In this document: piece by piece, positions 2,708 through 7,264 of the stretch
Position numbering within the stretch: the first letter of the stretch is position 1
Layout of the letters: every line of letters begins with the position of its first letter
Assembly (NCBI GenBank): GCA_041649175.1
Contig: JBAZNR010000003.1
Coordinates: forward strand, 143,449-207,448
Direction: 5' to 3'
Source of the DNA: Candidatus Omnitrophota bacterium
GTDB lineage: Bacteria; Omnitrophota; Gorgyraeia; Zapsychrales; JBAZNR01
Length of the DNA: 64,000 nt
The notes under the pieces: model-generated
Database searches by the model: none
What the model saw: only the letters and a program-made list of their open reading frames with translations
What the model was told of the DNA's origin: nothing
Translations under genes and position numbers: made by a program

Positions 2708-4960
2708 ATGTTGTCTAATTTTTCGTTTCACAAAAAATTATTTGTCCTATTAACAGCCGCTTTTCTGATAGCGGTTGTTTTTTTGCCGTACAGCTCCGTT
2801 TTAAAAAATGGACCTGTCCACTTAGGCGATGAGGCGCATTTGACGACGTTCACTTCTACCATCGAGAATAAGATCCTGGGAAACGATCTGTTCTTGCAGC
2901 ACGCGGGCAGCCTTGCTTTGCACAGCGCGATTGTTCTTTTGATATTCTTTTTTCTTTTGCGTTGTCTGAAGCTTCCGATCGGCGCGGCGACGATAGCGGC
3001 TTTGCTATTTGGGCTTCACCCTATTCATGTAGAACCGGTAGCTTGGGCTACCGGCCGCAAAGATATTTTGTATTCCTTATTTTATTTAGCCGGACTGTAT
3101 TCGTACTGGCGGTATTTGGAAACAAGAAAACGATCGCTTTACGCGTGGACGATCGTTTTTTGTGTTTTAGGCATGTTCTCGAGCCCAATGGCGTTCAGTT
3201 TTCCGTTTATTTTGCTTTTATGCGATTGGCTGTTCGGGCGAAAGATGACGCGAGATGTTCTATTTGAGAAAATTCCGTATTTTCTTTTTGCTATTTTTGT
3301 TTTTGGGATAACGCGTTCCTTTAAATTCTTTGTCCTATCAGAAGCGGGGAACTTAACTGAGATCGTTCTCGTTTGGGTTTGGGCTCTGGTATCTCATCTT
3401 CGCCATTTCTTTTTTTCGTATCTTTTTGTTCCGGTTTATCCCGCACCGCAACCAATTTCACTGTTTAATCTAAGCTATGCTTTTTCGATAGCGGCTTTTT
3501 TGTTGTTCGCTCTAGTTATTTTTATTTTCCGAAAAAATAAGTGGGTCGTTTTTTCTTTTGGATTTTATGCTTTATCGGTATTGTTTTCTCTAAAAATTAA
3601 ATACGCGCCGGATGACATTATTATTTCTAACCGTTTTATGTATTTGGCGAGTTTGGGATTTTGTATTTTGATCGGTGTTTATTTTGAGCAGGTTATGGGG
3701 CGCGCGAGAAATAAGGGGGGTATTATTAAACGCGCGGCTTGGTTTTTGCTCATCTCTTTCTTCCTCGTGCTATCCGCTAAAACATTTTTTCAAACACGGA
3801 TCTGGAAAAACAGCGAAACGCTCTGGAGCTATCAGCTGCGCCATTTTCCTAACACGCCGGCTGCCTTAGTCAATCTTGCGAGTTTAAAAAGCAGCCGGTC
3901 AAAGTTTGATGTTGGCGAAGTAATTGCCCTGTATGAAAAAGCTATCGTTGTTTCGCCAACGTATACGCAAGCCTATTATTGTTTGGGCAATTTGTACAAG
4001 GATATTCACGAGTATACCAGGGCGGTGACGGTTTATCGAAAGGTTTTAGCACTTGATTCAAGCTACAAAGACACTAATTTTAACTTAGGATGGATTTATT
4101 TGGAAATCGGGCAGGTTTCTGATGCCATTTTGGCTTTTGAGAGAGTTATTGCGCAAGATCCCCTGAACGAACAATCCTATATGGATGTCCTGGGGGCTTA
4201 TTTTAAAGTCATTAAAAAAGGGCAAAATGATGCGCGATACAAAGAGGCGCAAGCGAAAGTGGCTAATGCTTACATTTATCTTATCCAAAAAAAATCTCCG
4301 GCCGCGGCGTCCTATTTTAATCTAGGCTATATTTATGGAGAACAGGGAGACTTGAAGACAGCCATTGATTTCTACAAAAAAGCCTTGGAGATCAACCCTC
4401 AGTATGCAAAAGCGCTTTATAATTTAGCCAATGCGTATACGGATATGGAGTTGTATAATGAGGCGGTTAATCTTTACCGAAGAGCCATTAAAATTGATCC
4501 CAAGAATAGTGATGTTTATTTGGGTCTGGGAGTTGCCTATACAGCGCTCGGCAATCATCAGGAGGCCGTTTCTTGTTACAAAAAAGCTATTGAGGTCAAC
4601 CCGAGTAATTCAAACGCCTATTTCAACTTGGCATTTAGCTATGAGACAACAGGGCAAATCCGGGATGCGATTGAAAATTACAAGAAAACAACAGAGATCG
4701 ATCCTGCCCATGCGGAAGCCTATTATAATTTAGGGAACTTGTATGTTCACTTAGGGATGACCGAAACTGCCGTTAAAAACTATGAAAAAGCCATTGAGGT
4801 CAGCCCGGAGCATTTGAACGCCTTGATCAATCTCTCTATTGTTTATTCGCAAGAGGGGGAATTTGCAAGATCACTTGAGTATTGTAAACGGGCCATGGCT
4901 TTAGGCTATGAGCCGGAAGCAGAATTCTTAAGGATTTTGAAGGAAAAAACCGGGAATTAG
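2708..4960 (+). CDS. Integral membrane protein with C-terminal TPR-repeat array
   Basis: The N-terminal ~380 aa is strongly hydrophobic with multiple TM helices. The C-terminal half holds tandem 34-aa TPR units (AYYNLGNLY, ALYNLANAY, AYFNLAFSY and similar). Confidence 0.8.
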   Translation: MLSNFSFHKKLFVLLTAAFLIAVVFLPYSSVLKNGPVHLGDEAHLTTFTSTIENKILGNDLFLQHAGSLALHSAIVLLIFFFLLRCLKLPIGAATIAALLFGLHPIHVEPVAWATGRKDILYSLFYLAGLYSYWRYLETRKRSLYAWTIVFCVLGMFSSPMAFSFPFILLLCDWLFGRKMTRDVLFEKIPYFLFAIFVFGITRSFKFFVLSEAGNLTEIVLVWVWALVSHLRHFFFSYLFVPVYPAPQPISLFNLSYAFSIAAFLLFALVIFIFRKNKWVVFSFGFYALSVLFSLKIKYAPDDIIISNRFMYLASLGFCILIGVYFEQVMGRARNKGGIIKRAAWFLLISFFLVLSAKTFFQTRIWKNSETLWSYQLRHFPNTPAALVNLASLKSSRSKFDVGEVIALYEKAIVVSPTYTQAYYCLGNLYKDIHEYTRAVTVYRKVLALDSSYKDTNFNLGWIYLEIGQVSDAILAFERVIAQDPLNEQSYMDVLGAYFKVIKKGQNDARYKEAQAKVANAYIYLIQKKSPAAASYFNLGYIYGEQGDLKTAIDFYKKALEINPQYAKALYNLANAYTDMELYNEAVNLYRRAIKIDPKNSDVYLGLGVAYTALGNHQEAVSCYKKAIEVNPSNSNAYFNLAFSYETTGQIRDAIENYKKTTEIDPAHAEAYYNLGNLYVHLGMTETAVKNYEKAIEVSPEHLNALINLSIVYSQEGEFARSLEYCKRAMALGYEPEAEFLRILKEKTGN

Positions 4961-4972
4961 TAATAGCTTTAT

Positions 4973-4992
4973 GCGCCTGTAGCTCAATTTGG
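4973..4992 (+). repeat. Orphan 5' fragment of a tRNA (acceptor and D-arm) duplicating the start of the downstream tRNA-Arg
   Basis: ttatgcgccTGtagctcaatttgg here versus ttatgcgccCAtagctcaatttgg at 5402-5426. No matching 3' acceptor strand (CAGGCGC) follows. Confidence 0.5.
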
Positions 4993-5107
4993 TTCCGACG
5001 CTCCGACTTTTAAGCGATTTATAAATAGGAAGCGTCGGAGGCCGGAATCCCGACTTCCTAAAATGTTTTAACAGGGAACGTCGGGAATAGAGCAATTGAA
5101 AAACAGT

Positions 5108-5392
5108 ATGGCCTACATTTACATTTTAGTGAGTCAAAGTAGCGGAAAATATTATATTGGCTGTACGGCCGGAGACATTGAATCAAGAGTCCGGAAGCAT
5201 CAGCGAGGGGAAGTTTCATTTACGAAGCGTAATTTACCCGTTAAGTTGGTTCTGGCGCAAAAGTGTTCTAATATGCTCATTGCTCGGGCGGTAGAAAAGA
5301 AAATTAAAAGCCTAAAGAGAAAAGATTACATAAGCAGGATGGTTTTGGAAGGAAGAATCAAGATTTTGGATCGATATTTGAAAAGTGAATAA
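5108..5392 (+). CDS. GIY-YIG nuclease superfamily protein (YhbQ/UPF0213-like small protein)
   Basis: N-terminal AYIYILVSQSSGKYYIGCTAGDIESRVRKHQRG fits GIY-(10-11 aa)-YIG with the downstream conserved R and H. An in-frame TTG at 5096 is an alternative start. Confidence 0.75.
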   Translation: MAYIYILVSQSSGKYYIGCTAGDIESRVRKHQRGEVSFTKRNLPVKLVLAQKCSNMLIARAVEKKIKSLKRKDYISRMVLEGRIKILDRYLKSE

Positions 5393-5406
5393 GTAGATAG
5401 CGTTAT

Positions 5407-5481
5407 GCGCCCATAGCTCAATTTGGATAGAGCGCGGCTCTCCTAAGGCCGTTGTTGGTGGTTCGACTCCACCTGGGCGCA
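5407..5481 (+). tRNA. tRNA-Arg (anticodon CCT)
   Basis: Hand-folded cloverleaf. Acceptor GCGCCCA/TGGGCGC, D-arm GCTC-AATTTGGATA-GAGC, anticodon stem CGGCT/GGCCG with loop CTCCTAA, T-arm GGTGG-TTCGACT-CCACC, discriminator A. Confidence 0.88.
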
Positions 5482-5827
5482 TTTATTTTTTTAGCAGCAC
5501 AGGAGACCTGTATCAAAATTTTACCATTTTTCCTGAATTGTGCCTAATGGCTGCAAAACACTATGGTTACAAAAATTCTTTAAAAAAATGTTGACTCTGC
5601 ACAGCAACTATGGAAAAATGACAATACTTACTTAACCCAGAGATGATTTCAATCTGACACGAAAGGAGGGGATGGACAAAAGCCGTCGGAGGTCATCAGA
5701 TATCTGGAATTGAATCGATAAATACTAGACCATTATAATAAAACTAGATCAACCTATATAGCACAACAGCAGTAAAGCAGTACACAAAGTATCATAACGA
5801 AAGTTAACTCTTAAGGAGGAAACACAA

Positions 5828-7264
5828 ATGAAGAAATTATTATTAGCCGTGTTAGTGGTCGCTTTAGTGGCCATGCCGGCATTTGCCAGCGTGCAAAACG
5901 TTAAGGTCAGTGGTTCCATTAACTCCACCTACCTTAATCGTGATCAGTTTGATTTCGGCAGTACTGCCGGTCAAGTTGGTTGGGAACAGTCACTTTTACT
6001 TACCCAATCAACGTTGCGTGTTGATGCCGATTTAACCGACAATGTTTCAACGACCGTTAAATTGCTCAACGAAAGAGTTTGGGGCGAATCGGATGTTTCT
6101 TCTCCCGATGATGCCAACGACATCGATATCAATTTAGCCTATGCCACCATGAGAGAAATGCTTTATTCTCCCTTGACTGTTGTTATCGGTCGCCAGGAGC
6201 TCTTTTATGGTAATGGCTTAGTTATCGGTAACGGTACTAACAACGTTACAGGCCAAGGTGGTCTTAATGGCGTTGCTGAAGATCTCGCCATGAATACCGC
6301 ATTCGATGCCGTTAAGTTGATCCTTAACTATGATCCTCTGACCATCGATGTTGTTGCTTCCAAAGTTGATAGCAATGTTTCATTAGGTGCCGGTGAGATT
6401 AAAGATGATGTTAATCTTTTCGGTACCAATGCCAATTATAAACTTGGCGACAGCAAGAATACCGAAGTGGAAGCGTATTTTTGGACCAGAGTTGATAATT
6501 CAACTGCAGCAGCTGCTGCTGGTTCTAAGGCTGATACCGTTTACAACCCAGGTCTTCGCGCCAGCACCAATCCTATCAAGGGATTGAATGTTCAGGGCGA
6601 AGTTGCTTGGCAAAGAGGTAATAAAGCTGAAACAGTTGCTGGTGGTGTTCGTGATAATCAACAAAGAGAGGCTATGGCCGCTCAAGTTATCGCTAGCTAC
6701 GCCGTTAGCCATGATTCAGTGGCAAAATGGAACCCGGTTCTTAGCTCATGGTTTACCTATCTATCAGGCGATAACGATGGCATGACAGCGAGTCTCAACC
6801 CATCAACAAAAGAAACATATACCGCATGGGATCCTATGTTCGAAGGTCAAGCGGGTGGTACAATTTACAACACCTTATTTGACTATTCAAACGTTCGTCT
6901 CGTGGGTGGGTCTTTGCAGGTCAATCCTATGCAAGACGTAACCCTCAAGGGTACGGTTACCGGCCTCTGGTTAGATAAAGATCTCGATCAGATAAGTACG
7001 GGAGATGGCAATGGATCTGCGGCAAGCGTATTACGTCAACCGGACGGAACGTTCTCAACATTGAACGTTACCAGCAATCGTCATCTCGGTAATGAGTTTG
7101 ATGTTGCCTTGATGTATGATTACACCGAAGATGTCCAACTTGGTTTAAATGCCGGCTGGTTTTTCCCTGGTGCTGTGTTTGTAAACGCGTACGGCCACAA
7201 TGGTCTTGATGACAATCATCAAATGGCTTCACAGTTGATTGCCAACGTGAATGTAAACTTCTAA
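5828..7264 (+). CDS. Secreted beta-rich protein, probable outer-membrane beta-barrel/porin
   Basis: Signal peptide (MKKLLLAVLVVALVAMPAFA). G/N/T/S-rich amphipathic composition. C-terminal VNVNF ends in Phe as in outer-membrane beta-barrels. Strong RBS AAGGAGGA and a ~340-nt leader. Confidence 0.65.
   Translation: MKKLLLAVLVVALVAMPAFASVQNVKVSGSINSTYLNRDQFDFGSTAGQVGWEQSLLLTQSTLRVDADLTDNVSTTVKLLNERVWGESDVSSPDDANDIDINLAYATMREMLYSPLTVVIGRQELFYGNGLVIGNGTNNVTGQGGLNGVAEDLAMNTAFDAVKLILNYDPLTIDVVASKVDSNVSLGAGEIKDDVNLFGTNANYKLGDSKNTEVEAYFWTRVDNSTAAAAAGSKADTVYNPGLRASTNPIKGLNVQGEVAWQRGNKAETVAGGVRDNQQREAMAAQVIASYAVSHDSVAKWNPVLSSWFTYLSGDNDGMTASLNPSTKETYTAWDPMFEGQAGGTIYNTLFDYSNVRLVGGSLQVNPMQDVTLKGTVTGLWLDKDLDQISTGDGNGSAASVLRQPDGTFSTLNVTSNRHLGNEFDVALMYDYTEDVQLGLNAGWFFPGAVFVNAYGHNGLDDNHQMASQLIANVNVNF

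Follow-up and report, generated by a model that had tools for sequence, protein, structure and literature searches.

A twin-hairpin module and a single-domain GIY-YIG nuclease gene at a split tRNA-Arg(CCT) copy in an Omnitrophota genome: a probable tRNA-invading element

The window analyzed here, 64,000 nucleotides (nt) of contig JBAZNR010000003.1 from a Candidatus Omnitrophota bacterium, contains a single tRNA gene, tRNA-Arg(CCT) (5406/5407-5482; ARAGORN, and Rfam tRNA family RF00005 at 63.1 bits). Upstream of it, on the same strand, lie a gene for a 94-amino-acid (aa) GIY-YIG nuclease, a module of two adjacent hairpins, and a broken copy of the 5' part of the same tRNA. We interpret positions 4963-5482 as a tRNA-Arg(CCT) locus that probably retains the decayed left half of a small tRNA-invading element carrying a spare tRNA, a reading to which we assign a probability of about 0.6. 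The arrangement is an insertion relative to a syntenic site in another Omnitrophota contig, where the tRNA gene stands alone.

The split tRNA copy and its empty orthologous site

A first-pass annotation, made from the sequence alone, had noted a 24-nt string that occurs twice at this locus, the second copy forming the start of an intact tRNA-Arg(CCT). The string does occur exactly twice in the window (there were no matches in 100 shuffled sequences), at 4969-4992 and 5403-5426, one base away from the positions first given, and the second copy does open the intact gene, which ARAGORN reads as contiguous. The true repeat is longer, extending to 30 nt (4963-4992 and 5397-5426, identity 27/30), of which 10 nt are leader sequence 5' of the tRNA. 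The first copy had been described as having no 3' half. It does lack tRNA nt 28-76, but it does not stop at the hairpins: ATAGAGC (5087-5093), the 7 nt directly 3' of them, are the next 7 nt of the tRNA, which had escaped notice. The chance probability of a 7/7 match at exactly that position is ~6e-5. When 4993-5086 are removed in silico, identity with 5397-5433 is 34/37, with divergence beyond, so the upstream copy comprises the leader and tRNA nt 1-27, and a 94-nt twin-hairpin module interrupts it in the D-loop, between nt 20 and 21. If the 5' part of this fossil is joined to the 3' part of the live gene, with the module removed, ARAGORN still calls tRNA-Arg(CCT). The three mismatches in 37 between fossil and live copy indicate that the event is not recent. 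The order of parts is therefore fossil 5' part, module, 7 nt of tRNA, nuclease gene, live tRNA and native downstream flank (Table 1).

Table 1. Features of the tRNA-Arg(CCT) locus
Feature	Position	Strand	Evidence
Copy of the 10-nt tRNA leader, ATAGCTTTAT; live counterpart ATAGCGTTAT at 5397-5406	4963-4972	+	Repeat comparison, sequence
Fossil tRNA-Arg(CCT) nt 1-20, GCGCCTGTAGCTCAATTTGG; two transitions relative to the live copy, at nt 6 and 7	4973-4992	+	
Hairpin 1 of the module; foot TTCCG.../...CGGAA, inner CCGAC/GTCGG stem	4993-5047	.	Folds, covariance model R1
Hairpin 2 of the module; TCCCGAC-TTCC...GGGAA-C-GTCGGGA, canonical foot, 3' bulged C	5048-5086	.	R1, family consensus, covariation
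Fossil tRNA nt 21-27, ATAGAGC; end of the duplicated tRNA segment	5087-5093	+	34/37 identity
Single-domain GIY-YIG nuclease gene, 94 aa, on the tRNA strand; stop codon 14 nt 5' of the tRNA	5108-5392	+	Pfam PF01541
Leader of the live tRNA; second leader copy of the repeat	5397-5406	+	
Functional tRNA-Arg(CCT)	5407-5482	+	ARAGORN; Rfam RF00005, 63.1 bits

The neighbors of the locus are genes for a TPR protein and a porin. An Omnitrophota contig (L133) that is collinear with the window over at least nine genes, at 47-76% aa identity, carries between the same two genes an intact tRNA-Arg(CCT) alone, with no nuclease gene, hairpins or tRNA fragment. This is an empty site; the window and three other contigs (L131, L001 and L002) carry filled alleles, and these are not all built alike. 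In L131 the nuclease gene and the tRNA follow two 5' fossils, both interrupted in the D-loop by a module; the first fossil has the 5' allele of the empty-site contig (GCCCCTG...), and the second matches the live tRNA's 5' part exactly. L001 and L002 show the mirror order of tRNA, nuclease gene, module and tRNA nt 21-76, and in L002 the 3' fossil is followed by the first 25 nt of an apparent older copy of the unit. The first-pass annotation had proposed this search for an empty orthologous site, together with two outcomes that would have spoken against mobility. Neither was found: relatives do not all share the arrangement, one site being empty and the other orthologues being ordered differently, and the repeat is the body of the tRNA rather than a leader motif common to tRNA genes.

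Two familiar kinds of insertion at tRNA genes can be considered at this point. Integrative islands and prophages that use tRNA genes as insertion sites bring a replacement tRNA segment with them. The present locus resembles them in its target, in that the element brings the missing tRNA part so that function is kept, and in the direct repeat of tRNA sequence left around foreign DNA, which the first-pass annotation had taken for the usual scar of site-specific insertion. An attL/attR duplication of this kind does not, however, suit the details. There is no integrase between or beside the repeats; the insert measures only ~0.4 kb here and ~0.5 kb in the complete forms described below, which contain a whole spare tRNA; the duplicated part is leader plus the 5' part of the tRNA (nt 1-27) and not its 3' end; and the repeat copy is itself interrupted by the module, with its break in the D-loop. 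We consider an integrase scar highly improbable. A group I intron within the tRNA, which had been excluded earlier, was rejected here as well: the insert lies in the D-loop, the interrupted copy has no nt 28-76, the live tRNA is contiguous, and Rfam gives no intron match.

The last ~10 codons of the TPR gene (4930-4962, ending ...RILKEKTGN and stop) bear a weak, gapped resemblance to the 3' end of the nuclease gene (...KILDRYLKSE and stop), at a matching distance from the repeat. This similarity is too weak for us to claim an older nuclease gene remnant at ~4930-4962, the end of the TPR open reading frame (ORF).

Twin-hairpin modules in split tRNA genes

The two hairpins were rightly recognized as strong in the first-pass annotation. 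An RNA fold of 4963-5110 and a DNA fold of 4990-5095 both give z = -3.89 for hairpins at 4993-5047 and 5048-5086, and in neither case did any of 200 shuffled sequences fold as well. In a covariance-model search of the kind proposed there, covering 4700-5900 at a permissive threshold, the tRNA is the only significant Rfam match, and the hairpins have none. The loci of three close relatives of the ORF (L001, L002 and L003) also have two hairpins, with a common foot T-N-CCGAC ... GTCGG-N-A, abutting tRNA-derived sequence. A metagenome pattern scan for two adjacent CCGAC...GTCGG hairpins returned at least 120 stretches. Among the matches listed from that scan, the flanks of many look like pieces of a tRNA D-arm, and the modules share the consensus TCCCGAC-G-stem/loop-GTCGGGA followed by TCCCGAC-stem/loop-C-GTCGGGA. 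A bulge of 1 nt is conserved among them, as G on the 5' side of hairpin 1 (26/30) and as C on the 3' side of hairpin 2 (40/45), and the center of the module is GATC in 34/55. As DNA the module is dyad-symmetric, so that either strand reads a G-bulged hairpin and then a C-bulged one.

The upper stems differ wholly in sequence between loci while their complementarity is kept. Inner stems of at least 5 bp occur in 22% of module halves, as against 2% when shuffled. When 24 modules from unrelated contigs are compared, pairing is kept in 95.6% of cells, and changes on both sides are seen at 10 of 20 pairs (58 cells); none of 500 shuffles reaches the observed score, and slid controls pair at no more than 58%. 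Selection of the modules fixed the foot in this comparison but left the covarying pairs free. Covariance model R1, derived from the same 24 modules, has a single match site in the 64 kb, 4993-5086, found on both strands with 43.3 and 42.1 bits (E ~1e-9). It also matches every module in L001, L002, L131 (two), L003, L018, L019, L054, L147 and L148, and gives no match in L133, L130 or L009. Far from being accessory, the hairpins form the element's conserved, covarying core, and their position marks the break point.

The proximity of modules to tRNA genes and to nuclease genes was examined in 40 pattern-derived twin modules accepted by the module finder. Eleven lie within 150 nt of an intact tRNA and 11 within 600 nt of a nuclease gene, where we estimate a chance expectation of ~2% or less for either. 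Since finders based on regular expressions miss nested or long hairpins, all numbers from this census are lower bounds.

The best-preserved elements, of ~0.5 kb, are found in L019 and L054, where the D-arm of a host tRNA is interrupted, at 10|11 and 12|13 respectively. The insert consists of a module, a few D-arm nt, the nuclease gene, a complete tRNA with the same anticodon, ~20 nt, a few D-arm nt and a second module. Deletion of 473 nt in L019 yields a complete outer tRNA-Val(GAC), and deletion of 516 nt in L054 a complete outer tRNA-Lys(CTT). The inner tRNA of L019 is a different allele from the outer one, which indicates that this tRNA came in with the insert; L054 has two identical modules. 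An automated search for paired modules recovered L019, with much noise, and L054 was confirmed by hand. In Nomurabacteria loci L134-L143 a complete tRNA-Thr(CGT) 3' of the nuclease gene contains a module at 10|11. Deleting that module in L134 restores a tRNA-Thr(CGT) almost identical to the intact orthologue in L041, which argues that a module can be a simple insertion without target duplication; L121 carries a version of this locus derived by deletion. In L147 a 5' fossil and a 3' fossil flank an intact tRNA-Arg(TCT) and a nuclease gene.

Insertion points cluster at 10|11 and 24|25, symmetrically across the D-stem; further points are 12|13, 15|16 and 27|28, together with positions in the D-loop, the anticodon region and the T-loop. 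The earlier suggestion of a minimal mobile GIY-YIG cassette, or the remnant of one, at the tRNA 5' end is supported as regards insertion at this locus and recurrence at many tRNA genes, but what is hit is the body of the tRNA, in most cases its D-arm. On the inner side of modules remain ~4-14 nt of D-arm sequence, as would fit cleavage at a short, fixed distance from a hairpin.

Placement of modules inside tRNA sequence, at loops and stem junctions, might also suggest an intervening sequence acting at the RNA level, an intron-like D-arm insert removed from the pre-tRNA. In silico removal does restore a full tRNA in L134 and L023, where complete interrupted copies were later found. However, deletion restored a tRNA in none of 137 candidate modules of the first sample, truncation is usual among interrupted copies, and an intact tRNA of the same anticodon lies near each of those studied in detail. 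In addition, an RNA element needs neither dyad symmetry in DNA nor model matches on both strands, and no Rfam family matches the module. This explanation appears improbable to us.

Among further loci, an outer tRNA-Ile(GAT) with encoded CCA in L023 (1460-1790) is split twice, once by a twin-hairpin module at 10|11 and once by an anticodon-loop insert of ~165 nt that contains a complete, different tRNA-Ile and is flanked by an 18-nt inverted repeat, CCCGCACCTAACAAGGA; the outer tRNA-Ile is restored when both inserts are removed. In a Margulisiibacteriota contig (L148, 1240-1400) a tRNA-Pro(GGG) fossil adjoining an intact copy carries three hairpin insertions, in the D-loop, after the anticodon and in the T-loop, and a second fossil lies 3' of tRNA-Pro(CGG) (1790-1900). 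Tandem arrays occur 3' of intact tRNA-Val genes, with units of 141 nt (L004 5330-5547, L006 3405-3623, L040 3780-3985) or ~120 nt (L018 2070-2270). Each unit comprises a spacer, a few D-arm nt, a hairpin module and a tRNA 3' part, which suggests repeated insertion or unequal exchange at the module.

A single-domain nuclease linked to tRNA genes

The nuclease ORF, which starts 21 nt 3' of the module, was correctly identified in the first-pass annotation; it matches the Pfam GIY-YIG family PF01541 at 43.9 bits (cut-off 22.6, E = 3.1e-11), and an identical database protein is annotated "GIY-YIG nuclease family protein". Residues Y5, Y16, G18, R27, H31 and E63 are invariant in 20 relatives, and the catalytic Tyr, Tyr, Arg, His and Glu are all kept. 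A confident AlphaFold2 model (pLDDT 92.1, pTM 0.82) shows a beta-sheet core with helices on its flanks, as in solved GIY-YIG domains, and has no second domain. The top Foldseek matches are UPF0213 protein BH0048, Slx1 and the I-TevI catalytic domain, all with E >0.001; by profile, the nearest solved relatives are the UPF0213 proteins BH0048 (1ZG2, E = 3e-17) and EF2693 (1YWL, E = 1.5e-13). A threshold of E <= 0.001 gives 26,586 representative clusters for the family and one of E <= 1e-10 gives 5,634, most members being 80-130 aa long; those that are named come from Omnitrophota, Nomurabacteria, Kuenenbacteria, Wildermuthbacteria, Margulisiibacteriota and WOR-1. Searches with tblastn found no match to the nuclease protein in plasmids or in 50,697 phage records. 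Neither the window protein nor its closest relative has an NCBIfam match; a more distant relative (P0006) reaches 24.7 bits against grpIintron_endo, over 32 residues and below the cut-off of 56. Assignment to a defense system was rejected, as PADLOC and PHROGs give only marginal matches to the GIY-YIG motif. The nuclease gene is under purifying selection (dN/dS = 0.08 for L001 and L002); in comparisons of the window with these two loci pN is 0.17-0.19, and synonymous sites have reached saturation.

For 20 of 31 distinct nuclease genes in the loci analyzed, the distance from the ORF to an intact tRNA is at most 60 nt, and in all 20 the two share a strand; for others, a tRNA or a transfer-messenger RNA (tmRNA) is 89-540 nt away. 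The ORF often starts in the last bases of one tRNA and often stops within the first 10 nt of the next, as with the TAG of ...TGTAGCTC. Nine tRNA loci had been picked by way of the protein or a neighboring gene and not by the hairpin (the window, L001, L002, L003, L131, L134, L144, L147 and L148). A tRNA adjoins the nuclease gene in all nine, although only its 3' end is retained on the truncated contig L002, and eight of the nine have clear modules and tRNA fossils. A scan of species-representative genomes with a single protein gave one locus, a tenth of this kind, in Gangjinia (L009), where the nuclease gene lies beside a tmRNA gene. Apart from the window, modules occur beside the nuclease gene in L001-L003, L016-L020, L054, L094, L113, L120, L121, L131, L134, L147 and L148. 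The tRNA identities at nuclease loci include Arg (CCT, TCT and CCG), Val, Met, Thr, Lys, Ile, Ala, Glu and Pro.

Classical GIY-YIG homing endonucleases such as I-TevI and the Seg enzymes combine a catalytic domain with a sequence-specific DNA-binding domain and measure ~200-270 aa; SegB too has a DNA-binding domain. This architecture is not that of the window protein and its relatives, which have 80-130 aa and the catalytic domain only. One may nevertheless suppose a free-standing enzyme of the SegB kind, which would cut double-stranded DNA of naive tRNA alleles and spread by double-strand-break repair, the hairpins being incidental, for example terminators or mRNA stabilizers. The GIY-YIG fold with its catalytic residues, the position of the gene beside tRNA genes and the presence/absence polymorphism would all be accounted for. 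There is also a precedent, since SegB of T4 is a free-standing, site-specific GIY-YIG homing endonuclease whose gene is likewise embedded in a tRNA gene cluster, and it promotes the inheritance and amplification of the tRNA region (PMC2330249; PMC13096335). We know of no description of a hairpin module or of tRNA fossils for SegB. Against such an enzyme, the present protein is small (80-100 aa) and without a DNA-binding domain, and at least ten tRNA identities with several insertion positions make a single sequence-specific target site unlikely. The module, moreover, is conserved and covarying and sits exactly at the break of the fossil, and the window hairpins have no T-run typical of terminators. 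The first-pass description of a homing-nuclease fold thus does not carry over to a classical homing enzyme, the nearest solved relatives being UPF0213 and Slx1, and we regard this explanation as unlikely.

It is slightly less likely still that the gene is a resident, immobile housekeeping gene of the UPF0213/YhbQ type, with the repeat as a local duplication and the hairpins as regulatory or processing signals of a tRNA-mRNA operon. Strong purifying selection, apparently vertical divergence at the window locus and invariable co-orientation with the tRNA would be expected of such a gene, and UPF0213 proteins (1ZG2, 1YWL) are the closest solved relatives by profile and fold. The window protein differs from them, however, in a C-terminal extension beyond the matched core (LKRKDYIEKI..G.IK), which is conserved among its own relatives, and in the fixed linkage of its gene to tRNA genes and hairpin modules. 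A housekeeping role also leaves aside the empty orthologous site, the differing order of parts among orthologous loci, the host tRNAs split by an insert with a divergent replacement tRNA, the several copies per contig in L105, L110 and L147, and the lack of an NCBIfam match. Taken together, these features favor the tRNA-invading element over an immobile gene.

Several observations concern the distribution of the nuclease gene. Two copies lie within 1 kb of each other in L105 (297-987), L110 (324-1003) and L147 (1501-2282), which shows that the family is multi-copy in some genomes; the copies are in tandem in the first two and separated by tRNA-Leu and tRNA-Gly in the third. In L009 (2058-3228, Gangjinia marincola) and L117 a tmRNA gene, and not a tRNA gene, precedes the relative of the nuclease gene on the same strand, and the module model finds no match in L009. 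L134 and L136 share an identical nuclease protein (P0158) and the block of tRNA-Thr, nuclease gene and module, with unrelated sequence upstream of locus position ~1850; the breakpoint is the 5' end of tRNA-Thr(GGT). In L135 two VIT1 genes are inserted before prfB.

Proposed mechanism and relation to known systems

The closest published parallel is the Ssn system. SsnA is a 94-aa single-domain GIY-YIG enzyme that binds a flanking hairpin repeat as single-stranded DNA only and cuts a few nt upstream of it; such repeats lie near 71% of SsnA homologues (Chenal et al. 2025, Nat Commun 16:2388, PMC11893778). Its authors remark that the order repeat-gene-repeat resembles an insertion sequence, but mobility is not shown there and tRNA is never mentioned (PMC11893778). 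Judged by protein size and by gene layout as published, the two systems are alike: both have a single-domain GIY-YIG protein of 94 aa, and in both, cognate hairpin repeats that combine a conserved foot with a variable stem lie on the flanks of the gene. They differ in that the hairpins here are dyad-symmetric pairs inside tRNA genes, accompanied by fossil tRNA pieces and a spare tRNA.

By analogy, the nuclease would recognize its cognate G-bulged hairpin in single-stranded DNA only and nick a few nt to one side. Because of the dyad symmetry of the module, each strand would present one 5' G-bulged hairpin, and nicks would fall at opposite edges of the module. A break within tRNA homology could then lead to recombination with the cognate tRNA gene, always leaving one intact copy and one disrupted by the module. 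A crossover 5' of the module would give the window type (fossil 5' part, module, nuclease gene, tRNA), and one 3' of it the mirror type (tRNA, nuclease gene, module, fossil 3' part) of L001, L002 and L134; the disrupted copy would decay by deletion. The simplest history for the window may be that a full element, or a circle with a module-disrupted tRNA and the nuclease gene, recombined with the resident tRNA 5' of the module, and that a deletion between the repeated 3' parts followed.

Hairpin-ended elements with a different enzyme offer a second comparison. Like IS200/IS605 elements and REP/RAYT systems (cited in PMC11893778), the complete units have hairpin ends, here predicted to be recognized as single-stranded DNA, and gene-less hairpin derivatives are scattered elsewhere. 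In L019, L054 and L134 insertion without target duplication, as in IS200/IS605, is indicated by exact restoration of the tRNA; the window itself has one module only. Unlike IS200/IS605, they have no HUH/Y1 transposase (TnpA), the only ORF in the unit being the GIY-YIG protein, and they target tRNA genes at several positions rather than one short sequence. We know of no strand-joining activity in GIY-YIG proteins.

A number of points weigh against the interpretation of the locus as an invading element, or against parts of it. The window has one module and no right-hand fossil, so its history as a full element is drawn from other loci. The two modules of L019 differ in sequence, and simple duplication of the module on insertion cannot explain every case. 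The published SRM consensus of Ssn, HGTCWYN(0-2)YYVSBRHN(0-5)WNVSBRGN(0-2)RNCYNB, matches none of 55 modules and no site in the window, whereas it does match the NTS control. The nearest solved relatives of the window protein are UPF0213 proteins, and it is at most a candidate member of the Ssn clade cd10448. Modules were sampled by one pattern scan with the foot sequence fixed, among the matches listed, and more than half of those sampled have no tRNA or nuclease gene nearby. From sequence divergence, which is comparable to that of host genes, the nuclease gene looks long-resident at the window locus; it may be domesticated, or partly so, rather than actively selfish. The nuclease activity of the 94-aa protein, finally, is a prediction.

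GIY-YIG nucleases are familiar as homing endonucleases and from eukaryotic Penelope elements. The literature searched yielded no description of GIY-YIG/hairpin units in tRNA genes and no bacterial transposable element built on a stand-alone GIY-YIG domain. What is new here is an Ssn-like nuclease/hairpin pair whose hairpins form a new class, whose target is tRNA genes and whose cargo is a spare tRNA, and for which insertion is directly documented. It is conceivable, and we propose it only tentatively, that the twin-hairpin module and the single-domain GIY-YIG nuclease represent a new class of prokaryotic mobile element, in which a hairpin-specific single-stranded-DNA nuclease stands in for a transposase. 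Such an element would insert into folded, single-stranded tRNA genes (D-arm, anticodon arm and T-loop) and persist by means of the spare tRNA that it carries or duplicates.

If so, this would be a possible new way of DNA movement, and in Omnitrophota, candidate-phyla-radiation bacteria and Margulisiibacteriota the element would cause tRNA genes to be duplicated, to have alleles replaced and to decay. A mobile origin of nuclease/hairpin pairs of the Ssn type would gain the evidence that it has lacked: the loci described here include filled and empty sites as well as host tRNA genes split with no base lost. The tRNA fragments, duplicated tRNA genes and odd alleles of small-genome uncultured bacteria, which annotation pipelines easily misread, would find an explanation, and new hairpin/nuclease pairs could become tools for single-stranded-DNA applications.

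Downstream of the locus, a promoter-like motif, TTGACAC ... CTATGGAAAAAT, lies ~200 nt upstream of the alginate-export porin gene and is conserved in five Omnitrophota loci (window 5590-5700, L131 3790-3880, L133 3790-3870, L130 128-215 and L002 585-715). A conserved leader, ACTTA..CCAGAGATGATTTCAAT..GAAAGGAGGGG, follows on its 3' side; it has no Rfam match and could be a regulatory 5' untranslated region.

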